Assembly: GCA_946529215.1 (NCBI GenBank)
Contig: CAMMZC010000003.1
Span: 3,976-67,975 of the forward strand
DNA length: 64,000 nucleotides
DNA from: an uncultured Clostridia bacterium
GTDB lineage: Bacteria; Bacillota; Clostridia; TANB77; CAG-508
Direction: 5' to 3'
A program made the position numbers and the translations under genes. The notes beneath the pieces were generated by a model that worked only from the letters and a program-made list of their open reading frames with translations, was not told the DNA's origin and did not search any database. Shown here in pieces: positions 4,947-61,574 of the stretch (its first letter is position 1; each line of letters begins with the position of its first letter).

Positions 4947-5927
4947 ATGATAACAATGATACAAGAAGCGGAAAATCCCCCATATTTAAATGATTTTTTA
5001 GATTACATGATAACAATTCAAAATAAATCAAAAAATACTGTAAAAGAATATAATTATGATTTAGCAACATTTTTAAGATTTTTAAAAATGCATTTCAAAT
5101 TAACAGATGAAGATGATTTAAAAATGATAGAATTTGATGATGTAACAATTGATACATTAAAAAAAGTAAAACTTGAAGATTTGCATGCCTTTTTAGGATA
5201 TCTTACAAAAAACTATAATAGCAAGGCGACTACACGTTCTCGCAAAGTTTCAAGTTTAAGGGTATTTTTTAATTATCTATGTCAAAAAAATTTAATTGAA
5301 ATAAATCCTACACAAAATTTAGAGACTCCAAAAATAGGAAAAAGATTGCCAAGATATTTGACTTTGGAAGATAGTAGAAAACTTTTAAATGTAGCTTCTA
5401 ATGAAGATAATAGAAATAATGAAAGAAATTATGCTATAACTACCCTATTTTTAAATTGTGGAATGCGTTTATCTGAGCTTGTCGGAATAAACTTAACAGA
5501 TATTGTTTGGGACGAATGTCAATTAAATGTAATTGGAAAAGGAAATAAAGAAAGAACAATTTATTTAAATAAAGCTTGTGTTAAGGCATTAGAAGAATAT
5601 ATGAGAGTTAGACCTAAAACACATATAACAGCAGACGCAGAAAAAGCCTTATTTTTAAGTGAAAGAAAACAACGTATCTCTCGCAGAATGGTTCAAGAAA
5701 TCATTTATAGTGAACTAAAACAAGCAGGACTTGATACTTCAAAATTTTCTGTACATAAACTTAGACATACTGCTGCAACTCTTATGTACCAATATGGACA
5801 AGTTGATATTCGTGCTTTGCAAGAACTTTTGGGGCATGAAAGTATTTCTACTACTGAGATTTATACTCATGTAAGTAATAATCAAGTTAGAGATGCAGTT
5901 GAGAGAAATCCTTTGGCAAATATGTAA
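4947..5927 (+). CDS. Tyrosine site-specific recombinase XerC/XerD family
   Basis: 326 aa. C-terminal catalytic motifs HKLRHTAATLMYQYG...LLGHESISTTEIYTHV (R..H..R..Y) are typical of Xer recombinases. Confidence 0.85.
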   Translation: MITMIQEAENPPYLNDFLDYMITIQNKSKNTVKEYNYDLATFLRFLKMHFKLTDEDDLKMIEFDDVTIDTLKKVKLEDLHAFLGYLTKNYNSKATTRSRKVSSLRVFFNYLCQKNLIEINPTQNLETPKIGKRLPRYLTLEDSRKLLNVASNEDNRNNERNYAITTLFLNCGMRLSELVGINLTDIVWDECQLNVIGKGNKERTIYLNKACVKALEEYMRVRPKTHITADAEKALFLSERKQRISRRMVQEIIYSELKQAGLDTSKFSVHKLRHTAATLMYQYGQVDIRALQELLGHESISTTEIYTHVSNNQVRDAVERNPLANM

Positions 5928-16321: not shown

Positions 16322-16397
<76 letters not shown>

Positions 16398-26819: not shown

Positions 26820-26984
26820 ATCAGATCATTCCTCTCTTAAATACTTATAGTTGTTTAATTCTTCTTTTCTTAAACTAAATCATTATTTTAAATACACATA
26901 TATAATAGCACTTGAATAAAAAAAATGCAATCAAAACTTTAAAAATAAAAAGATTTTTATGTAATCAAATTTTTAAGCGCAAAA

Positions 26985-27195
26985 AATCCCCGCTGTAGCC
27001 GTAACTTGTGCCAAAATTTTTAACAACCTGCTCTCACAAACAGGTGGGTGCCTACCTAAATACTCATGGGCTTCTTACTACTATTATATTGCAAAAAGTG
27101 TAAGCTTGCACGCCATATTCAGAGTTCAGCCCCTCTTTAAACTTGTAGGTTCTAAAAATTCTGCAATACGCACTATGCAGGGGTTTTGTTTAATT
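26985..27195 (+). ncRNA. Candidate structured small RNA of unknown class (6S-like or other)
   Basis: About 210-bp non-coding segment with clearly higher GC than its flanks, lying between two minus-strand genes. The 5' end CCCCGCTGTAG can pair with the 3' end CTATGCAGGGG, followed by TTTT. Internal hairpins include GGTGGG-TG-CCTACC and CCTAC...GTAGG. GU pairs favour the plus strand. Confidence 0.3.
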
Positions 27196-31047: not shown

Positions 31048-31123
31048 TGGTGCCACCAAGCAGAATCGAACTGCTGGCCTACGGGTTACGAATCCGTCGC
31101 TCTACCAACTGAGCTATAGTGGC
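31048..31123 (-). tRNA. tRNA-Thr (CGU)
   Basis: Reverse complement reads GCCACTATAGCTCAGTTGGTAGAGCGACGGATTCGTAACCCGTAGGCCAGCAGTTCGATTCTGCTTGGTGGCACCA: cloverleaf with anticodon CGT and encoded CCA. Confidence 0.88.
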
Positions 31124-33455: not shown

Positions 33456-33644
33456 TTACAATTCACAACCGAAAATATTTTTTTATAAAAGTTAATATAT
33501 AAATTATTTGTAATTAAATGTGGGGACCGTTCAATGATTTCCAAAAGTTTGAAAAACTTTTGATGAAATCATTAGAATGGGGATAATGTAAAATAATTTA
33601 TATATTAACTTTAACCCGTACAACAATTAGCTGAAAATTGTAAC
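33456..33644. repeat. Repeat family B copy 1 (ttacaattcaca...core) with internal 20-bp near-perfect palindrome, in nrdD 5' region
   Basis: 33456..33483 ttacaattcacaaccgaaaatatttttt and 33599..33644 tatatattaactttaacccgtacaacaattagctgaaaattgtaa match 43776..43866 at about 90% identity. The central insert holds the palindrome ttcaatgatttccaaaagttt-g-aaacttttgatgaaatcattagaa. Confidence 0.55.
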
Positions 33645-33780
33645 GTATTTTTTAAAATTATATCAATAATTATTAAAAAATCTGTTGCTATTGCAACAAA
33701 TATATGCTATAGTTATATATATCAAAATAAGAAAAATTTTAAAATATATCCAACAAAAAAATTAATAGAGGTGTAACAAA

Positions 33781-34423: not shown

Positions 34424-35401
34424 TTATACATCTGCTTTTTTACTTTCTTCTATTTCTTTTTGAAAATTATTATAAGCTTCATTCCAAGCCTCAAAACTTT
34501 TGTCTTCTCTATGATCTGGAAGATCATTGTTATTTTTCAAATACTCACCAAGATAACTTGTTACTTTTAAAGCACCTGTGTAATTTAAATGCTCTCCCCT
34601 TTTTTCTTGACAATCTTTTTTCCAATTAATTTTTAATTCATCAACCTTTAAATTTAAGTCAATATATTCTATTCCTAATTTTTTTGCGATTTTTTCTATT
34701 CCATTGTGTTTATCATAATTCCAATTTGCAGGTGATGGTGAATTATACAGCATAAATTTTGCATCATTTTTTTTACATAAATCTTTAATTTCTTTTAAAT
34801 GTTTTATATTATCACTAGGTACTTTTTTAGAAACTTCATTTTCCTTCATGAAGTTATCTCTTTTGCTCTTCTTTACTTTATTGGTCTTAGTGCTAAATCT
34901 ATATCCTTTATCATTTACTATTTCTGTATATTCAGGTGTTTTATAAAAATCCTCTTTGGTTAAATTTTTCCATCTATCATGAAATTCCAAAACTGGAAAA
35001 TATTTATCAACATATTCTTTTAAATGGCGCACATATCCATTTTTAGTATATAAAGCATTTGCTTCTAAAATAACAATTTTAGGCTTTTGTCTTTTAAAAG
35101 CTACATTTAAATAATAGTAACTATTAGAAATACGCTGTGCAGGTGTCCCACAAACATAAGAAGTAAATCCATATTGATTCCATAGTTCTAGAGGTATATA
35201 TGAATTATATGATTCACTATCTCCAAGTACTATAACATCTATAGTATTTTCTGGCTCAGTATAAATTCCTGTTACAAGTTGTTTTCTTTTTCCTATTCCA
35301 GCTTCTAAAGTATTGTTTTTTGGTACAAATATTTTTGAAAGTAAAGCTAAAATTATAAAAAATATGCCTACAAAAACAATACATTTTATTGTCCTTTTCA
35401 T
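34424..35401 (-). CDS. DltD-like protein (membrane-anchored SGNH-type)
   Basis: 325 aa. N-terminal signal/anchor. Sits last in an operon with DltA/DltC/DltB-like genes. Family assignment rests on context and general similarity. Confidence 0.5.
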   Translation of the reverse strand: MKRTIKCIVFVGIFFIILALLSKIFVPKNNTLEAGIGKRKQLVTGIYTEPENTIDVIVLGDSESYNSYIPLELWNQYGFTSYVCGTPAQRISNSYYYLNVAFKRQKPKIVILEANALYTKNGYVRHLKEYVDKYFPVLEFHDRWKNLTKEDFYKTPEYTEIVNDKGYRFSTKTNKVKKSKRDNFMKENEVSKKVPSDNIKHLKEIKDLCKKNDAKFMLYNSPSPANWNYDKHNGIEKIAKKLGIEYIDLNLKVDELKINWKKDCQEKRGEHLNYTGALKVTSYLGEYLKNNNDLPDHREDKSFEAWNEAYNNFQKEIEESKKADV

Positions 35402-35578
35402 TTTACATCTCTCTTTCTATTAAAATACTTTTTATTATTGGCATTTTAGTGTATATTTTAATAATGCGCGTAAGCAACCAAACGAGCATAGCGGGTGCGA
35501 TTGGATCAACTTACAAACAAGTCATTTAGAATATGGAAGTTGCGACACACAATCATTATAAAAATATACACAAAAAAA

Positions 35579-37168
35579 CTAAAAATTAGCATACATTGGC
35601 TGTACTGCCTCATAGTTGATTCCATAAGCTCCAAATAAAAGTATTGCAAAAATTATTAAATAGTAAATAGTCCATCTAATAACTATATTTTTCTTAGAAA
35701 TTTTTTCTCTAACACTTATATCTTTTTCATGCATTATGCTAATTACAAACACTAAAATTGTAAATATAGCAATAATTATAAAATCTTGCACATCCATTCC
35801 AAGTTTTAGAATTGTTCCATCTTTAAATGAATTTAATGAGAAATTTGTAAACATCTTACCAAGCATCTCAAATCCTGATGTAACTGTTGTTGCTCTGAAG
35901 AATAACTCTCCAACAAAAACAAGTAATGTAGTTTTTATTATTTGCAATCCTTTATACCACGCTTTTTCTCTATTTATGTGTAATTTCGCACTAATCCACA
36001 AAACTGCAGGCTCAAATATTTTGCCTGATAAAATAAGTACAAAATGATACATTCCAAAAAATATAAAAGTCCAAGCTGCTCCATGCCAAAGTCCATTACA
36101 GAACCATACACAAAATAGTGCAATAGCACTTGCAATTAATGGTCCATAATATTTTCCAATTTTCTTTCTAGCATTTGTTGTTAATTTTTTTAATGGCTCA
36201 GAAAGTGATAATGGATAAAATATGTAATCTCTGAAAAATGCCCCTAAAGTTATATGCCATCTTGTCCAAAATTCTGATATGTTTTTTGAGAAAAATGGTT
36301 GTTTGAAATTTTCTGGTAATTTTATTCCAAAAATTTCTGATGTTCCAATTACCATATCCATTGTTCCTGAAAAATCCATATAAAGCTGTAATGTATAAAG
36401 AACCATACCAGCTACCATAATTCCGCCATCATATTTTGCATAATTTCGATATATTTCACCTATAAATCTGTTTAGCCTATCTGCAATAATCATTTTCTTA
36501 ATCATACCATAGCTAATTCTTAATAATCCGCTTTTTAAGTTAGCATAAGTAATCTTGTTTCCTTCCCATAATTGCATTGCAGTTTCTGAATATCTGCAAA
36601 TTGGGCCTTCCATAATTTGTGGGAAGAATGTTAAATATAAACTAAGTCTTGCAATATTTTTGTCTGCCTTAATTTTTTCGTGATATATGTCAACCAAATA
36701 CGAAACTGCTTGTAAAGTATAGAATGATATACCTATTGGCATTAATATTTTTGGTATTTGTAGCTTGAATGGTATTTTTAAAGTTTGTAATAAAGAATTT
36801 ACATTTCCACCAATAAATCCTATATATTTTACTACTAACAAAATACCAATATTTACTAAAACTCCAAATGTTAGTACTCTTCTTTGTTTTTTTAAATACT
36901 CTGCTCTTATTTTCTTTTTTTGTTCTTTTTCTGCTTCTTTTAAAATTCCATTTCTTTCATTTTGTAATAGTTCGAGCCAAATTCCTATATAATGTATTAA
37001 AAATGTAGAGCCTATTACATACACAATTAATTTTTTGCTTATAGACCAAAAAAATGCATAGCTAGCAAGCAATAGCACTTTCCATCTGTGTTTTTGTGGA
37101 ACTATGCTATAAGCAATTAATGTTAAAGGAAGAAACATAAAAAGATATGCTACTCCAAAATATGTCAT
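35579..37168 (-). CDS. MBOAT family O-acyltransferase (DltB/AlgI-like)
   Basis: 529 aa polytopic membrane protein. FWTRWHITLGAFFRDYIFYPL contains the MBOAT catalytic His motif. Confidence 0.85.
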   Translation of the reverse strand: MTYFGVAYLFMFLPLTLIAYSIVPQKHRWKVLLLASYAFFWSISKKLIVYVIGSTFLIHYIGIWLELLQNERNGILKEAEKEQKKKIRAEYLKKQRRVLTFGVLVNIGILLVVKYIGFIGGNVNSLLQTLKIPFKLQIPKILMPIGISFYTLQAVSYLVDIYHEKIKADKNIARLSLYLTFFPQIMEGPICRYSETAMQLWEGNKITYANLKSGLLRISYGMIKKMIIADRLNRFIGEIYRNYAKYDGGIMVAGMVLYTLQLYMDFSGTMDMVIGTSEIFGIKLPENFKQPFFSKNISEFWTRWHITLGAFFRDYIFYPLSLSEPLKKLTTNARKKIGKYYGPLIASAIALFCVWFCNGLWHGAAWTFIFFGMYHFVLILSGKIFEPAVLWISAKLHINREKAWYKGLQIIKTTLLVFVGELFFRATTVTSGFEMLGKMFTNFSLNSFKDGTILKLGMDVQDFIIIAIFTILVFVISIMHEKDISVREKISKKNIVIRWTIYYLIIFAILLFGAYGINYEAVQPMYANF

Positions 37169-37238
37169 TTTTATCTTTCCCTTCTCTTACTTCATAATTT
37201 TGTTTTTTTATATCTCAAATTAAAAAGATTTTTGTTTT

Positions 37239-37469
37239 CTACCCTTCTTCTTGCAAACGTGTAATCATTTCCCACATAGCTTTTGCAGAATTAAAGTTAT
37301 CTGGTATTATTTCTACTGTTGGTATTACAATGTCAAATTCATCTTCTAGCTCTGCAACAAGTGAAATGATTGCAAGTGAATCTAAATAATGCTCATCTAT
37401 TAAAGTTGTGCAATTTTCGTAATCTACTCCATCTTCTATTTCTTCTAAAATTTCAATTAATCTTTCCAT
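37239..37469 (-). CDS. D-alanyl carrier protein-like (DltC-type acyl carrier protein)
   Basis: 76 aa, acidic. Phosphopantetheine attachment motif LDSLAIISLV. Confidence 0.75.
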   Translation of the reverse strand: MERLIEILEEIEDGVDYENCTTLIDEHYLDSLAIISLVAELEDEFDIVIPTVEIIPDNFNSAKAMWEMITRLQEEG

Positions 37470-37600
37470 TTTTAACTTCCTTTCTAGGGACAGATTTCAG
37501 TTCCCATTTTACTTTAATATTTATTAACCTTTATTTATGAACTTTAGTTTATTATATATTTTATCAATAGCCAATTTCTCTTGGGGAAATACGTTCTTTT

Positions 37601-37804
37601 TTTTAAAAAATTTCGACGCACCCCCTTTTTTGGCACAAGCATAAGGATTAGCGGTAATCAATTTTTAGCGTTATTTTTGTTTAAAATCTCGCATTTTTTT
37701 ATAAAAGTCGTTATTTTTTAATCTCATTAATTTTAGCGATATTATTATATTAGGTATGATGCGTCTTGTTTGATTACAATTTTTGCGTCCAAATTTTTTA
37801 AAAA
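37601..37804. repeat. Repeat family A copy 1: about 205-bp element bounded by about 20-bp inverted repeats (MITE-like or structured RNA)
   Basis: Arms ttttaaaaaatttcgacgca (37601..37620) and tgcgtccaaattttttaaaaa (37784..37804) are reverse complements with 1 mismatch. The 5' about 60 bp (cgacgcaccccctttttttggc...aggattagcggtaatc) is shared with copy 2 at 51464..51669. Confidence 0.6.
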
Positions 37805-37915
37805 TTTTATATATTATCTATATGTTTTTAAAAATTTAAGCTTATTTAACATAATAGTTTTTCTTATTTAATGATTGAATTTTAAAGATATTTTTATTAA
37901 TGAAAGTTCAGCCTG

Positions 37916-39160
37916 TTAAAAATAATAACTTGCCTTGTTTAAAGTATATGTTTCAAATGCCTCTCTTACTAATTTGAGTTTTCCACCTTTAAGTAAAGCA
38001 ACTTCTGGCAATTCTCTACTTAAAAATAGTGAAATTCCTTCTGTCATACAATAAGCTCCTGTGTTTTTAAATATAAACACATCTCCTACTTGTAAATTAC
38101 TTACAGGATATTGTTTTATAATTATATCATTTATTGTACAAAGTGAACCCATAAGATTCCAAGCTTCTGTATTGTTGTTATCTTGCTCTGTTTTTTTGTT
38201 TTCACGCTCTTCTTTATTATCGTCTTGCTCAATATTAGTGTTATCTCGCAATTGATATATTTCAAGATGTGGAAACTTCATTGCCATTGTTTGTCCATAA
38301 TAAACTAAGTGATGAATTCCTCCATCTAGTATAGCATAATTTTGACACTTATTTGTCTTTTTGTCAACTACTTTTGTTAAATAATATCCACAAGAAGCCG
38401 CAATGCTTCTGCCAAGCTCAATTACAATTTTTCCTTTATATTTCATATTGTCAATTCCGTTAGAGAATTCTTTTAAAAATTCTACTTCATCAAATTCTTC
38501 TCCTTGGAAATAATGCACAGGAAAACCTGTTCCAAATTCAAGCTCTTCTACTATGTAGTTATATTTTTCTTCTAGTCTTGCTAAAAACTCATCTAAATAA
38601 TCTATTTCTTTTTGAAGCCTTTTGTTTGTTCTTTTTTGAGTTCCTGAAAAATATTGAATTCCTTCAAAATTCAAGTTTGTATAAGAATCTTTTTTAGATA
38701 TTATTTCTTCTATATCTTCTTCATTTATTCCAAATTGATTTCCACTTGTAAGTCTAAGTAAAACATTTAGTTTTACATTATGTTTTTTTGAAAGTTCATC
38801 TAAAAGCTTTAACTGTTCTTGCGACTCAACTGTGTATCTTCCAATTTTTTTGTTTGATGTGATCATATATTCTATTACACTTGGAGTTTTATACACTCCA
38901 GAAATAACTATTTTTTCAGGTGTAATACTTGATTCTTCACATATGCTGTATTCCCCTGGAGAACATACTTCAAATCTGTCTACATCATCATTTATTTCTT
39001 TTACAATAAATGTATTTGCTTTTATTGCATAACATAGTTCAAGCCTATTTGTTAAATTTTCTCTTAAAAATCTAATTCTTTGTTTTAGCTTGTCAATGTC
39101 AAATACATAAATTGGTGTTTCATATTTTTTTAAGATTTTTTCTATAATTTCTTGTTTCAT
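37916..39160 (-). CDS. PLP-dependent decarboxylase, Orn/DAP/Arg decarboxylase family 2 (fold type III)
   Basis: 414 aa. YAIKAN PLP-lysine motif near the N-terminus. DAP-decarboxylase-like length and layout. Confidence 0.72.
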   Translation of the reverse strand: MKQEIIEKILKKYETPIYVFDIDKLKQRIRFLRENLTNRLELCYAIKANTFIVKEINDDVDRFEVCSPGEYSICEESSITPEKIVISGVYKTPSVIEYMITSNKKIGRYTVESQEQLKLLDELSKKHNVKLNVLLRLTSGNQFGINEEDIEEIISKKDSYTNLNFEGIQYFSGTQKRTNKRLQKEIDYLDEFLARLEEKYNYIVEELEFGTGFPVHYFQGEEFDEVEFLKEFSNGIDNMKYKGKIVIELGRSIAASCGYYLTKVVDKKTNKCQNYAILDGGIHHLVYYGQTMAMKFPHLEIYQLRDNTNIEQDDNKEERENKKTEQDNNNTEAWNLMGSLCTINDIIIKQYPVSNLQVGDVFIFKNTGAYCMTEGISLFLSRELPEVALLKGGKLKLVREAFETYTLNKASYYF

Positions 39161-39221
39161 TTTTTCTCCTTCATTATTATATTTGATTAAAAAATCTACG
39201 CACTGAAAAAAGTAATTTTTA

Positions 39222-40727
39222 TTATTTTTTTAAGATTAGTGCCAACTCTTTCCTATCAATCTTCCCATTTTTAGTAATTGGAAATTTCTCTATTTGAGTA
39301 ATTTTATTAGGGACCATAAATACCGGTAAATTTTCTTTCAAATATTTAACAACTTCATCTTTTTCTATATTTCCAACATAAAAGCCATAAAGTTTTCCTT
39401 TTTGCTCATTAAATAAGCAGCAACTTCTTTCAACTCCAGTTACTTTTTCCATTGCTCTTTCTATTTCTTCAAGCTCAATTCTATGTCCCATGTGTTTTAT
39501 TTGAAAATCTTTCCTTCCCATAAAAACAATTTCGCCATCTTTGTTATATGTACCTAAATCTCCTGTTTTATATATCATATCTATATATTTGTCATTTAAA
39601 GGATTTTGCACAAAATGTGATGAAGTTTGTTCTTTGTTGTTAAAATACCCTAATGCTAAACAAGTTCCTTTTACACAAATTTCACCCTGTGTGTCTGCAT
39701 CTGTAATTAGTTTATCATCTTCATCTAATAAAAGCACTTGCTCATTTGGAAATGGCTTTCCTGCTGGGATTTTTTCGTAATTTAAATTTTTGTCTACTAT
39801 ATGATATGTGCAATTACATGTAATTTCTGTTGGTCCATATAAATTAACATACATTGCATTTGGCAAATGTTCTATCCATTGTTTTAAATGCTTAATTGGC
39901 ATTACTTCTCCACTAAACATAACTTTATTTACTGTTTCTGGTGTTTTGTAATCTAATGCATGGAAAGTTGTAATTAAGCAAAGTGCAGATACTGCCCAAA
40001 TAAGAGTTGTAACTTTGTTGTTGCAAATATAGTCAAGTAATTCTGCAGGTAGAGAAAATAGCCTTTTAGGAATTATGACTAGAGTTGCACCTTGCGAAAT
40101 ACTTGAATATATATCTTTTACAGATACATCAAAATCAAATGGTGCTTGATTTCCTATAATATCGTTTTCTGTTATATTAAAAATCTCAGTAAAATTATCT
40201 ATAAAGTCAATTACAGACCTATTTCCAACCAATACTCCTTTTGGCACACCTGTTGAACCTGAGGTAAAATTCGCATATAGTGGGTCTAAGTCAAGTGCAG
40301 CGTTTCTTATTTCTTTTAGCTTAGTTTCTCCTATTTCTGTGTTTTTTAAATCTTCTAATAATAAAATGTCTTCTTTATTTATTAACTCTGCTGCTATTTC
40401 TTCATGTGCTTTATCTGTAACAATATTTTTCGCACCTAAAACATTTATTATATGTTCTAGTCTTACTTTGGGTAAATCTGGATTTAGCAAAACATAAAAA
40501 CAACCTGCATATACTGCTCCAAAAAACGTTGCTAATGTATCTTTTCCTTTTTCCATTAAAACTGGCACAGGATTTCTTGGCTCATAATATTTGCTTAATC
40601 CTGTTCCTATTTTTTTGCTTAAATTTGTTAATTCTTTGTATGTATATTTTCCTTTTTCATCTATTACTGCTATTTTCTCACTATTTTTTTGAGTACTATT
40701 TTCTAAGTATTCTAATACTGTTTTCAT
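39222..40727 (-). CDS. AMP-binding adenylation enzyme, D-alanine--D-alanyl carrier protein ligase (DltA)-like
   Basis: 501 aa. FTSGSTGVPKGV adenylation core. Length and context with the DltC/DltB-like genes. Confidence 0.8.
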   Translation of the reverse strand: MKTVLEYLENSTQKNSEKIAVIDEKGKYTYKELTNLSKKIGTGLSKYYEPRNPVPVLMEKGKDTLATFFGAVYAGCFYVLLNPDLPKVRLEHIINVLGAKNIVTDKAHEEIAAELINKEDILLLEDLKNTEIGETKLKEIRNAALDLDPLYANFTSGSTGVPKGVLVGNRSVIDFIDNFTEIFNITENDIIGNQAPFDFDVSVKDIYSSISQGATLVIIPKRLFSLPAELLDYICNNKVTTLIWAVSALCLITTFHALDYKTPETVNKVMFSGEVMPIKHLKQWIEHLPNAMYVNLYGPTEITCNCTYHIVDKNLNYEKIPAGKPFPNEQVLLLDEDDKLITDADTQGEICVKGTCLALGYFNNKEQTSSHFVQNPLNDKYIDMIYKTGDLGTYNKDGEIVFMGRKDFQIKHMGHRIELEEIERAMEKVTGVERSCCLFNEQKGKLYGFYVGNIEKDEVVKYLKENLPVFMVPNKITQIEKFPITKNGKIDRKELALILKK

Positions 40728-43775: not shown

Positions 43776-43866
43776 TTACAATTCACATCCGAAAATATTT
43801 TTTTAGTAAATGTAAATATTTATATATTAACTTTAAACAGTACAACAATAAGCTGTGAATTATATC
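43776..43866. repeat. Repeat family B copy 2 (short form)
   Basis: ttacaattcacatccgaaaatattttttt...tatatattaactttaaacagtacaacaataagctgtgaatta matches both halves of copy 1 (33456..33644). It lies 7 bp downstream of the MBL hydrolase stop. Confidence 0.55.
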
Positions 43867-50616: not shown

Positions 50617-51318
50617 TTACTTTGCTTCTTTTTCTTTATTTAAAAATTTATATGTAAATGCTGCTAATGCAGAACCTACAAATGGAGCCACTATAAATAC
50701 CCAAACTTGCTTAATAGCTTCAGTTTTACCTACTATAGCCATTACTGCTGCTGGTGCTAAACTTCTTGCTGGATTAACAGATGTTCCTGTTAAAGCAATT
50801 CCAAGAATATGTACAAATGCTAACGTAAGTCCAATTACAATTCCAGCAACTGATGACTTTTTCTCATCTGAAGTAACTCCAATTATTGTATAAATGAATA
50901 CAAATGTTAAAACTACTTCAACAGCAAGTGCTGCCCACATTGAAATTCCAAGTGATGAATTTGTTCCAAATCCATTTGTTCCAAGTCCTATAGCTTGAAT
51001 TCCTCCAGCTTGTGCAACTGCTTCAGATTGACTTAAGATAAAGAAAAGGATTCCTGTTCCTATAAATGCACCTACTACTTGTGCTAAAACATAAAATAAA
51101 AATTCTGTAACAGTAATTTTTTTGTTAATTAGCATAGCAAGTGATACAGCTGGGTTTACATGACATCCTGATACATTACCTATTACATAAGCCATTGCAA
51201 CAATTGAAAGTCCAAATGCTAAAGCTATAGCTACTGTGTTTCCTGTAATTACAGCTGTTCCACATCCAAACAATACTAATACGGCTGTTCCGATTGCCTC
51301 ACAAAAATACTTTTTCAT
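50617..51318 (-). CDS. MIP-family aquaporin / glycerol facilitator
   Basis: 233 aa, six TM helices with two NPA motifs (HVNPAVS, SVNPARS). Confidence 0.85.
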   Translation of the reverse strand: MKKYFCEAIGTAVLVLFGCGTAVITGNTVAIALAFGLSIVAMAYVIGNVSGCHVNPAVSLAMLINKKITVTEFLFYVLAQVVGAFIGTGILFFILSQSEAVAQAGGIQAIGLGTNGFGTNSSLGISMWAALAVEVVLTFVFIYTIIGVTSDEKKSSVAGIVIGLTLAFVHILGIALTGTSVNPARSLAPAAVMAIVGKTEAIKQVWVFIVAPFVGSALAAFTYKFLNKEKEAK

Positions 51319-51463
51319 AAATTTTTCCTCCTTTAAAAAATCTGAATTTATTATATTATTTTTTTCATTTTAAGTCAATACATTTTTTTAGTTTTTTATT
51401 TATTGTAGTTACTGGTTAACGATTTTAAAAAAAAATTAAAGTAATTCGATTTTAGTATATATT

Positions 51464-51669
51464 TTTTTGAAAAAATTTCGACGCACCCCTTTTTTTGGCT
51501 ATAACGTGAGGATTAGCTGTAATCCATTTTAAGCACATTGCAAGTCTTTAAAAAGCAGTTTCTTAATAAAATAAGTTTATTTTTAATCTTCGTAAGATAT
51601 AAATACACATTTATAGTATGTTTCATATTCTTAATTTAGTCGAGATTTTTGCGTACAAATTTTTCAAAA
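51464..51669. repeat. Repeat family A copy 2 (about 206 bp with terminal inverted repeats)
   Basis: Arms tttttgaaaaaatttcgacgca (51464..51485) and tgcgtacaaatttttcaaaa (51650..51669). 5' core cgacgcacccctttttttggc...gaggattagctgtaatcc is shared with copy 1. Confidence 0.6.
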
Positions 51670-51717: not shown

Positions 51718-52377
51718 TTATAACTTTAATTCGTCAATTATTTGCCTATAATCTTTCGCCATAATAATCGCAGTACCTGCAACTAAAACATTTGCACCTG
51801 CGTTTTTTACAGCTTCACAAGTTTTTAAATTTATTCCCCCATCTGCTTCTATATCTATTTCCAAATTATTTTCATCAACATATTTTTTTAAAGTCGCTAT
51901 TTTATCAACCATATCAGAAAGCAAAGTTTGCCCACCTTTTCCAGGCTCAACAGTCATAACCAAACATGTATGAATATATGGCAAATATTTATAAACTTCT
52001 TCTATTGGAGTAGCTGGTTTTACAGATATTCCTACTTTACTATTATTCTGTTTTATTAAATTTATGCATTCAAAAACTTCTTTTTCATTTTTGCATGCCT
52101 CTAAATGAAATGTTATAATATTTGGCTCAACACTTGAAAAATCATCTATTCCTTTTTTTACATCTTCAACCATTAAATGCACATCTATTGGTAAATTTGA
52201 AATTCTTTTTATATATGAACTCACTTCTAACATATCATTATATGTATTATTTTTTACAAACTTTCCATCCATCACATCTATATGAAAATAATCTGTTTTT
52301 GCTTTTTCAAGCGCAAATATTGTTTCAGATTCTTTTCCTTTTATCATATTTAAAATTGAAGTTGATATTTCTGTCAT
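51718..52377 (-). CDS. rpe: Ribulose-phosphate 3-epimerase
   Basis: ILNMIKG..HIDVMDGKFVKN..DVHLMV motifs. Start taken at ATG 52377 (219 aa); the longer track ORF starts upstream. Confidence 0.8.
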   Translation of the reverse strand: MTEISTSILNMIKGKESETIFALEKAKTDYFHIDVMDGKFVKNNTYNDMLEVSSYIKRISNLPIDVHLMVEDVKKGIDDFSSVEPNIITFHLEACKNEKEVFECINLIKQNNSKVGISVKPATPIEEVYKYLPYIHTCLVMTVEPGKGGQTLLSDMVDKIATLKKYVDENNLEIDIEADGGINLKTCEAVKNAGANVLVAGTAIIMAKDYRQIIDELKL

Positions 52378-52605
52378 TTTTATTAACATCCTTTCAAACA
52401 AGACACCACACTTATTGAAAAAATAAAATATACATTTATTTTTCAACTTTGTCTCCTCTTTTTTGTATTATATATCTTTTTACTTGTTTATGCAAGTAAA
52501 AATTATTAATTCTTTGAATCCTTGAAATTTCGCAATACAAAGTGAAAACAAATATTTTATTTTCACAAGAAAAACAGCCTTGCAAAGCAAAGCCATTTTT
52601 ATATA

Positions 52606-53937
<1,332 letters not shown>

Positions 53938-53945
53938 TTATATAG

Positions 53946-54043
53946 GAAAAATCGTCAGATTTTTGTGTATATAAAAAGACAAAGTTTCCTATATTTGCGC
54001 GATTGCTTTGCAATCTGCGCAGTGGCGAAGCCACTTTTCTTAT
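53946..54043. repeat. Repeat family C copy 1: conserved promoter-proximal module upstream of eno
   Basis: aaaaatcgtcagatttttgtgtatataaaaagacaaagtttcctatatttgcgcgattgctttgcaatctgcgc...ccacttttcttat matches 61066..61162 upstream of gap at about 85% identity. Contains the palindromes AAAAATC-n4-GATTTTT and gattgc-ttt-gcaatc. Confidence 0.6.
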
Positions 54044-54249
54044 ATTTTAATGAATATATAAGTATTTTAAGAAGTAATCTTAGTTAACTAAATAGCTTAA
54101 AAATTCTTAATAATTTTGCAAGGGAATCTAAAAACAAATTTTTTTAGGGTGCTTGTAAAATTAATTAGAATTTTTAGCGTTAAATGAAAGTTACCTAAGA
54201 TTATTCGAAAAATACATATATATTCATTTAATTCACAAAATTAAATACA

Positions 54250-61019: not shown

Positions 61020-61065
61020 AAAAATTCCTCCTTTTTATTTAGCTTCATATATTTTATTATAAAGC

Positions 61066-61162
61066 AAAAATCGTTAGATTTTTGTGAATATAAAAAGACA
61101 AAGTTTCTTATATTCGTGCGATTGCAAAGCAATCTGTACATATGCGAAGCTACTTTTCTTAT
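61066..61162. repeat. Repeat family C copy 2 upstream of gap
   Basis: See copy 1. Here the hairpin loop reads aaa rather than ttt. Similarity continues weakly for about 100 bp further upstream (ttttgcaag...atttttttt). Confidence 0.6.
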
Positions 61163-61298
61163 TTTGCCTTTTTAAGACAATTTTATTCTATACTATTAAT
61201 AGTTTTTTTGCAAGTGTTTTTCAAAAATTTTTTTTAAATATTTAGACTCTTCATCAAAAAAAAATATACTAACACTATTAACTAGTAATCAGTATATT

Positions 61299-61574
61299 TT
61301 AGTTGTTATAATGACCTTTACAAGAAATAATTTTCACGCAATCATTATCTATTGTATAAACTATTCTATTTACATCATCTATTCTTCTACTCCAAAATCC
61401 CAACAAGTTATCTTTTAGAGGTTCAGGTTTTCCAATGCCTTCATAAAAATTTCTATTTATGTCTTTTATTAATAAATTGATTCTTTTTAAAGTCTTTTTG
61501 TCCTGTTTTTGCCAATAGCAATAATCTTGCCACGCTCTTTCTTCCCATAAAATTTTCATATTATTTATCATCAT
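61299..61574 (-). CDS. yoeB: YoeB/Txe-family type II toxin
   Basis: KILWEERAWQDYCYWQKQDKK...GKPEPLKDNLLGFWSRRIDDVNRIVY...KGHY. Start ambiguous (ATG at 61574, 61571 or 61559), overlapping the antitoxin stop. Confidence 0.8.
   Translation of the reverse strand: MMINNMKILWEERAWQDYCYWQKQDKKTLKRINLLIKDINRNFYEGIGKPEPLKDNLLGFWSRRIDDVNRIVYTIDNDCVKIISCKGHYNN

Follow-up and report, generated by a model that had tools for sequence, protein, structure and literature searches.

The window analysed here, a stretch of 64,000 nucleotides with a GC content of 26.8% (identical in sequence to the ENA metagenome scaffold SHIW14-1_SAMN02144230 scaffold_248), carries in two unrelated intergenic spacers the same AT-rich sequence of about 205 bp bounded by inverted repeats, and this raises the question of what kind of element the repeat, here called family A, belongs to. 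The initial annotation had offered three answers, namely a MITE, an attC-like site and a structured RNA leader. Of these, the MITE reading is the best, because the element is small, non-coding, bounded by inverted repeats, dispersed, polymorphic among relatives and conserved at its ends. The most probable reading (about 0.6) is that family A is an old, low-copy MITE-like family, which was spread by a transposase and is now fixed. It is most likely a previously unrecorded family and, apart from its fixed length, an ordinary kind of element.

The two copies with shared inverted-repeat arms and one conserved end, as described in the initial annotation, were both recovered in place. Copy 1 occupies 37600..37804 (205 bp, nhmmer E=2.5e-55) between a PLP decarboxylase gene and a dltC-like gene (site 1), and copy 2 occupies 51465..51669 (205 bp, nhmmer E=3.5e-53) between rpe and glpF (site 2). 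Over their full length they give a blastn alignment of 226 nt with 70.8% identity (E=2.6e-28). The arms of copy 1 are TTTTTAAAAAATTTCGACGCA at 37600..37620, which is the 3' arm in the sense in which the flanking genes are transcribed, and TGCGTCCAAATTTTTTAAAAA at 37784..37804, which is the 5' arm in gene orientation, and the two are mutually complementary save for one G.G / C.C position. The arms of copy 2 are TTTTGAAAAAATTTCGACGCA (51465..51485) and TGCGTACAAATTTTTCAAAA (51650..51669). In the family, the inverted-repeat arms are 16-21 nt long and consist of a GC core, TGCGT(C/A)G, adjoining A/T runs; the ends read AAAAAATTTSKACGCA / TGCGTMSAAATTTTTT, and the shared end motif of the arms is TGCGT(C/A)GAAATTTTTT. 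The window contains the 18-mer AAAATTTCGACGCACCCC exactly twice, whereas 0.01 occurrences are expected, and the arm motif AAAAATTTNNACGCA has four exact matches in the 64 kb, which are precisely the four arms. With one mismatch allowed, a fifth match appears at 61326-61340; chance alone would give 0.75 matches.

At one end of the element, about 50 more nucleotides are conserved beside the arm. This end block lies at 37597..37669 in copy 1 and at 51462..51534 in copy 2, and the two blocks, the first 73 nt of the copies, are 85% identical. In copy 1, the block comprises the arm, a CCCCC/TTTTTTGG segment and a small hairpin, and it forms the low-coordinate end, proximal to the downstream minus-strand gene. 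The small hairpin that had been reported for both copies is indeed present in both, as GGATTAGCGGTAATC at 37645..37659 and as GGATTAGCTGTAATCC at 51510..51525. The homology between paralogues ends no more than about 20 nt from the arms. Palindromy of the whole element was considered and ruled out, since outside the arms the self-alignment of the element is at background level, as estimated from the match of a copy to itself.

The genes that flank both copies are all located on the minus strand. At site 1, the upstream gene (37916..39160, minus strand) encodes a PLP-dependent decarboxylase of the Orn/DAP/Arg decarboxylase fold with 414 aa, and the downstream gene (37239..37469, minus strand) encodes a DltC-like acyl/peptidyl carrier protein of 76 aa, which starts about 130 nt from the end of copy 1; these are the neighbours that had been proposed from the open reading frames. 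At site 2, the ribulose-phosphate 3-epimerase gene rpe (51718..52446, minus strand) lies upstream and the gene of a MIP/GlpF-type channel (50617..51318, minus strand) lies downstream. Seen in gene orientation, the element has its conserved block at the 3' end, with about 130-150 nt between the block and the following start codon. The placement of copy 1 inside a dlt-like operon, also claimed at the outset, is borne out by relatives without the element, in which the two genes are only 21-48 nt apart. The surroundings of copy 1 are a cluster of an adenylation enzyme, the decarboxylase, the carrier protein, an MBOAT protein and a 325-aa protein.

This cluster (34424-40727, minus strand) differs from a standard dltABCD operon and consists, in this order, of a DltA-like adenylation enzyme, the PLP-dependent decarboxylase, the DltC-like carrier, a DltB-like MBOAT protein and the 325-aa protein, which has no family. 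The best NCBIfam matches of the decarboxylase are the exosortase-A-associated decarboxylase and LysA, both under the cut-off, and its position in the dlt-like cluster suggests that the transferred group is other than D-alanine.

The relatives used for comparison are loci from metagenome assemblies, whose study labels seem to point to work on the rumen or gut. Among GlpF homologues, the closest share 92-96% identity, and for one of them NCBI gives a 'Clostridia bacterium' MAG as the source. The fetched lineages are about equidistant from the window, with a 4-fold-site divergence of 0.13-0.26, and in all of them the order of the flanking genes, which are conserved housekeeping genes, is fixed. 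Site 1 is filled in L070 by a copy with 95.9% identity, and in L071/72/73, which lie on a 425-kb scaffold, by an orthologue with 77% identity. The same site consists of just 48 nt between the genes in L018/19/21/22/25/26/27 and L074, of 21 nt in L024 and of 279 nt of unrelated sequence in L023. Site 2 is filled in L056/L058, on the same 425-kb scaffold as L071, by an orthologue with 87.8% identity. In L065, the spacer measures 138 nt, and L053/54, L060/63 and L061-68 have three further inserts in it, all with inverted repeats of their own. Insertion polymorphism is seen among the relatives at both sites, where filled and empty alleles differ across the whole spacer, which makes base-exact junctions unreadable. 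Copies 1 and 2 are old and occur in two or more lineages each, and the two spacers are both hot spots of small insertions.

The last 95 nt or so of the rpe-glpF spacer are common to all alleles and contain TTGACT-17-TATAAT and a ribosome-binding site. This promoter-like site of glpF (11/12) is located at 51350..51378 on the minus strand, on the downstream side of copy 2, and strains without copy 2 have kept it as well. As every strain retains this site of glpF's own, glpF does not require the element for its expression.

Several other changes were observed in the two variable regions. The rpe-glpF spacer holds at least four different small elements across strains; in L060/L063 and L061/62/64/66/67/68 it carries an inverted-repeat insert, TTGGAAAGTTCC...GGAATGTTCCAA, and a hairpin, GTTACAGTTCAGT...ACTGAACTGTAAC. 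The variable spacer of site 1 starts inside the last codons of the decarboxylase gene in all lineages, and in L070, the closest of the relatives with copy 1 (L070:2740-2830), the last 22 nt or so of this gene are tandemly duplicated (TTTTAAACAAGGCAAGTTATTA twice), with the position of the stop altered. In L071 (L071:9556-10000), the spacer between the adenylation enzyme gene and the decarboxylase gene is 445 nt long against 61 nt in the window; it contains an apparent small reverse-strand ORF with a hydrophobic product and would be another lineage-specific insertion in the same operon.

On the same scaffold, about 10 kb beyond the right end of the window (L085) were covered, on that one side. 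Here, 8 kb past the end of the window, a third and degraded copy of family A was found (L085:~1330-1535) between a glycogen-debranching-type gene and ruvC. Its end block (nhmmer E=3.6e-6) terminates GGGGGTGCGTAGAAATTTTTT, and a decayed partner arm is present at the right distance. About 100 nt upstream of it, there is a second arm-like fragment and then a strong hairpin. Within about 74 kb of one genome, the family occupies three dispersed loci, besides which there is one arm fragment. All three copies have one common orientation relative to their flanking genes, and the genes downstream of them (dltC-like, glpF and ruvC) are functionally unrelated. The strong hairpin adjoining the third copy, GAACAAAGACGGAGCGTG...CACGCTCCTTTTGTTC at L085:1245-1310, may be a terminator-like repeat, and a related half, TTAATCACGCCCCTTTTATTC, recurs about 70 nt downstream of the same copy.

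A profile of five sequences (nhmmer, all filters off) found no other copy in the window or in about 307 kb of the relatives' loci, and neither copy had a blastn match among plasmids and phages. When species-representative genomes, JGI metagenomes and IMG/VR were scanned for exact patterns, only chance matches in unrelated high-GC DNA came up. The genome and metagenome scans are weak evidence, because their patterns demanded CGACGCACCCC and would miss the variants of L056 and L071, which read CTACGCACCC. The 20-mer AAAAATTTCTACGCAAAAAT, identical to the 5' arm of L071, was matched in ten related viral contigs of IMG/VR (L075-L084). In the two contigs inspected (L075 and L077), the match lies in the 3' coding end of an ORF, which in L075 appears to encode an integrase-like protein, and the matches were judged a coincidence.

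The pattern of conservation, which is typical of transposon subfamilies, differs between paralogues and orthologues. Between paralogues, identity is 0.83-0.91 in the 5' arm (gene orientation), 0.75-0.80 in the end block and 0.46-0.51 in the middle; the value of about 48% for the middle is near that of an optimised alignment of AT-rich sequence, yet above a chance level roughly estimated at 0.32. Between orthologues, the three parts differ little: the window copies compared with L071 and L056 give 0.83/0.91 in the 5' arm, 0.80/0.89 in the end block and 0.76/0.85 in the middle, so that all diverge at roughly the synonymous-site rate (pooled 4-fold-site identity about 0.79). At site 2, the element is 88.7% identical against 91% for the flanks and so is no better conserved. 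The copy of L070 is 96% identical to copy 1 of the window, with differences at 8 of 201 aligned columns, and the remainder of the spacer looks likewise by eye. Ends that stayed constant during the diversification of the family, together with resident copies that change at the background rate, are the pattern to be expected if the ends mattered for the spread and not for a job at the resident site.

MITEs are AT-rich, intergenic and TIR-bounded, their target duplications fade with age, and their transcripts form stem-loops (PMC10969869). Much of this description agrees with family A, which is small, non-coding and bounded by inverted repeats, lies in three unrelated spacers, shows presence and absence among relatives and is better conserved at its ends than in its middle. 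The ORFs inside it are of just 21-46 aa and unconserved, with in-frame stops in L056; a conserved small protein across the end block could be ruled out, as its frame is interrupted in L056. Traces of the transposition itself were looked for as well. In a scan of all boundary offsets with k=4-9, no target-site duplication gave a signal above mismatched-flank controls. No transposase or IS with matching ends was found in the window or in any fetched locus, and the Pfam tables of the fetched loci list no transposase. A short target duplication could have eroded, because the copies are old (the 4-fold divergence of the carriers is about 0.21-0.26) and the ends of family A are A/T runs. The reading is also weakened by the small number of known loci, only three, by the lack of any sign of recent movement and by the occupation of the same sites in two or three lineages.

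Furthermore, two properties of the family are unexpected of decaying junk, namely an invariant core spacing of 173-174 nt and arm changes that preserve pairing. The arms can form a stem of 16-17 bp that would close a loop of 163 nt; the dG of their RNA duplex ranges from -18 to -24 kcal/mol among the five intact copies, against only -7.7 kcal/mol in the third copy. Among five sequences, 92.6% of the cells are paired, and sliding one arm by 1-3 columns reduces this to 34-62%. Measured from the 5' core ACGCA to the 3' core TGCGT, the spacing in six sequences, the degraded third copy among them, is 173, 173, 173, 174, 173 and 173 nt, while other spacers in the same gene tables vary by tens to hundreds of nucleotides between these lineages. 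At site 1, there are no indels within the element against 102 gap columns in the flanks. The fixed spacing possibly reflects a helical phasing needed to join the ends in transposition, or else a structural role at the resident site.

Several changes in the arm sequences tend to preserve the pairing or make it better. The pair beside the core is G-C in copy 1 of the window and in L070, U-A in L071 and L056, and U.C in copy 2 of the window. The next pair of the stem is G.G in four sequences and C-G in L071, where a perfect 17-bp stem results. Two of the 8 differences between L070 and copy 1 make up a swap of U-A to A-U at paired positions. Two A-to-G changes in the arms give G.U on the gene strand and C.A on the opposite strand. 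Such compensatory changes are suggestive at most. The covariation among the five sequences, with two pairs doubly changed, is not significant, since 41 of 500 shuffles reach the observed score. The matched T-to-G difference in both arms of copy 2, which the initial annotation had taken as a hint of selection for pairing, does exist, but the match needs an offset of 1 nt (A6 on one side and T5 on the other), and the hint drawn from it is lost, because the orthologue of copy 2 in L056 keeps the G and not the C partner.

These observations bear on a rival explanation, in which family A is a structural module selected by the host, possibly a domesticated MITE, whose arm stem of fixed spacing acts in cis and is kept by selection at the resident loci. 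Such a module could work in mRNA, through processing, stability or a barrier to read-through, or in DNA, as a cruciform or a protein-bridged loop. The stem changes between orthologues agree with it, as they keep or improve pairing (G-C <-> U-A, G.G -> C-G in L071, U.C -> U-A in L056 and U-A -> A-U in L070), and so do the G.U pairs confined to the gene strand, the core spacing kept in six of six sequences despite middles that are about 48% identical, the absence of indels from the element at site 1 and the single orientation of the three copies relative to their flanking genes. Against these stand, besides the lack of significance of the covariation, the substitution rates of the element, which are those of the neighbouring spacer and of 4-fold sites, and the equally distant relatives that do without the element and have their genes 21-48 nt apart. 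The arm of the third copy has decayed, the downstream genes share nothing, and hairpin-templated repair could keep the arms complementary without any selection. On balance, selection for such a module is unlikely. Its more specific form, in which family A would be a domesticated, length-locked MITE in operons that serves either as a hairpin for RNA processing or insulation or as a DNA loop bridged by protein and requiring the spacing of 173-174 nt, is quite doubtful.

An RNA function independent of the arms finds little in the folding data. The interior of family A (162-165 nt, arms removed) has folding z values of +1.25 to -2.2 against dinucleotide shuffles on both strands and shows no excess, and the z of -2.2 to -3.9 for the whole element comes from the closing stem. 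The internal helices that RNAalifold suggests are disrupted in two of the five sequences. The small hairpin has not been conserved as a structure: in L071 one of its pairs is lost, and the third copy has no such hairpin. In neither spacer did Rfam yield a credible match, even at E<=10. With an interior that folds like shuffled sequence and downstream genes that are unrelated, the proposal of a structured RNA leader finds no support. A separately transcribed small RNA gene on either strand, with the conserved 70-nt block as its functional part, is a different matter, for it would fit the conservation of one end across paralogues and the stability that the closing stem lends to the whole element, and MITE-derived sRNAs are known in Coxiella (PMC10969869). 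Nevertheless, the scan found no promoter-like or terminator-like site inside either element, and the poor folding of the interior, the lack of an Rfam match and the loss of the small hairpin from L071 and the third copy count against this gene as well, which makes it very improbable. A site-specific recombination site, attC-like or other, is hardly credible. The attC sites are bounded by the core sites RYYYAAC ... GTTRRRY and are about 57-141 bp long. The sole point in favour of such a site is the imperfect inverted-repeat architecture with a variable centre; at 205 bp, family A is too long, and neither RYYYAAC nor GTTRRRY is present at its ends. The only tyrosine recombinase of the window (4947-5927) is best classified as XerC/XerD (240.8 and 228.4 bits) and reaches 101 bits on the integron-integrase model, far under the cut-off of 265. 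A cassette array is likewise missing from the conserved housekeeping surroundings, the order of which is fixed in all relatives, and this part of the initial annotation was dismissed.

Candidate signals at the edges of the element were also followed. The nearest promoter-like matches overlap only the terminal base of the element, or straddle one arm and the flank. An outward promoter across the 3' arm, T(A/C)GAAA followed after 15-18 nt by TATACT / TATATT, was rejected, as its hexamers are weak and matches of this kind are frequent in AT-rich sequence; the counts of the outward-promoter scan are not clearly above those of shuffles. An intrinsic terminator was not recognised, the sole GC stem being the long-range one that closes the 163-nt loop. 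Look-alikes of T-box and sigma-54 motifs (GGGTGCG in the conserved block and TGGCAC in copy 1) were set aside, as they are unconserved between the copies, have no Rfam match and do not fit the downstream genes. In the gathering scan of the whole window with Rfam 15, the only matches were 6S RNA (RF00013, 76.2 bits) at 26983-27186 on the minus strand and two tRNAs, at 16322-16394 on the plus strand and at 31051-31123 on the minus strand.

If family A is an old MITE-like family, its history may have run as follows. In the ancestor of several lineages, the element would have entered AT-rich spacers between co-directional genes, and after this entry its copies would have been inherited in place. 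The ends, that is, the arm and the 50 or so nucleotides conserved at one end, would have been the recognition site of a trans-acting transposase, and such recognition would explain why the ends of the paralogues are alike while the middle is near saturation. The resident copies would now drift at about the neutral rate. Read-through mRNA of both window copies would hold both arms and with them the closing stem of 16-17 bp, because the window copies lie inside transcription units and, in relatives lacking copy 1, the two genes of site 1 nearly adjoin (21-48 nt). By analogy with the Correia and ERIC repeats, the stem in the mRNA could be a site for a double-strand RNase of the RNase III type, or it could hinder read-through. 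Both the spread by transposition and any consequence for the mRNA are inferred from the sequence.

Several known families of small repeats resemble family A. The Correia elements of Neisseria (CREE/NEMIS) are about 100-160 bp long, against 205 bp for family A, and both are non-coding, intergenic and TIR-bounded, with TIRs of about 20-26 nt in Correia. Correia elements exist in hundreds of near-identical copies with a TA duplication, whereas for family A three copies are known, which have diverged strongly, and a duplication is not detectable. In both families the arms pair in RNA, and there is no sequence similarity between them. The Correia elements are often co-transcribed with their neighbours, RNase III cleaves their transcripts at the TIRs, and promoters are present in some subtypes (PMC10969869).

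The ERIC/IRU repeats of enterobacteria and family A are both imperfect palindromic intergenic repeats in transcribed spacers, and both are old, diverged and often at positions that related species have conserved. ERIC is about 127 bp long and palindromic along its entire length, whereas family A is self-complementary at its terminal 16-21 nt only. For ERIC/IRU, an orientation-dependent effect on mRNA stability has been described (PMC10969869). The pneumococcal repeats RUP, BOX and SPRITE are small intergenic repeats residing together in a low-GC Firmicute, where they cluster in the same spacers and insert beside or into each other (PMC10969869). This clustering matches the hot spot between rpe and glpF with its four different inserts across strains. 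None of these pneumococcal repeats has sequence similarity to family A. RUP has an IS630-type partner, whereas family A has no known IS partner.

The same genome carries a second repeat of this size class, family B, for which transposition can be demonstrated. Family B, at 54051-54226, is 176 bp long, with TIRs of 18 nt (TGAATATATATGTATTTT / AAAATACTTATATATTCA) and target duplications TTAAA at 54046-54050 and 54227-54231. A homologue is found in the rpe-glpF spacer of L053/L054 with the duplication ATAAT, and the yezG-eno spacer of L053/L054 lacks family B and has 19 nt at the insertion site of the window. With its clean 5-bp duplications and different sites in different strains, family B is a demonstrable MITE, and its occurrence with duplications at differing sites means that small transposons move in this lineage. 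Families A and B occur in the same host, fall into one size class, have AT-rich TIRs and lie between genes; however, they share no sequence, and family A is without clean duplications or strain-variable sites.

Taken together, the intergenic spacers of this lineage have been colonised by several families of miniature inverted-repeat elements, and the differences in spacer length between strains, including those inside the dlt-like cell-envelope operon, are largely due to such elements. This is relevant to annotation and operon prediction in these very AT-rich Clostridia, which are represented by metagenome-only MAGs. Should the fixed spacing and the pairing changes hold in more copies, this would speak for a MITE recruited to a structural role.

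Two further groups of intergenic repeats were noticed. A third repeat family of about 114 nt and 84% identity occurs at 53933-54046, at 61052-61165 and in L085:3602-3909. It contains the palindrome GATTGCAAAGCAATC within the motif AAGAAAAGTGGCTTCGCC...GCAGATTGCAAAGCAATCGCGC, has no Rfam match and lies upstream of the genes for enolase, GAPDH and a peptidoglycan-binding hydrolase; it is absent upstream of the enolase gene of L053. This family may be mobile, or it may be a shared operator or leader. A pair of intergenic repeats at 33456-33642 and 43776-43864, with 87-88% identity over 40-58 nt, lies near the divergent crp-like/nrdD spacer and upstream of a gene for a lactamase_B-fold protein, and the spacer 33545-33780 shows weak self-complementarity over 180 nt.
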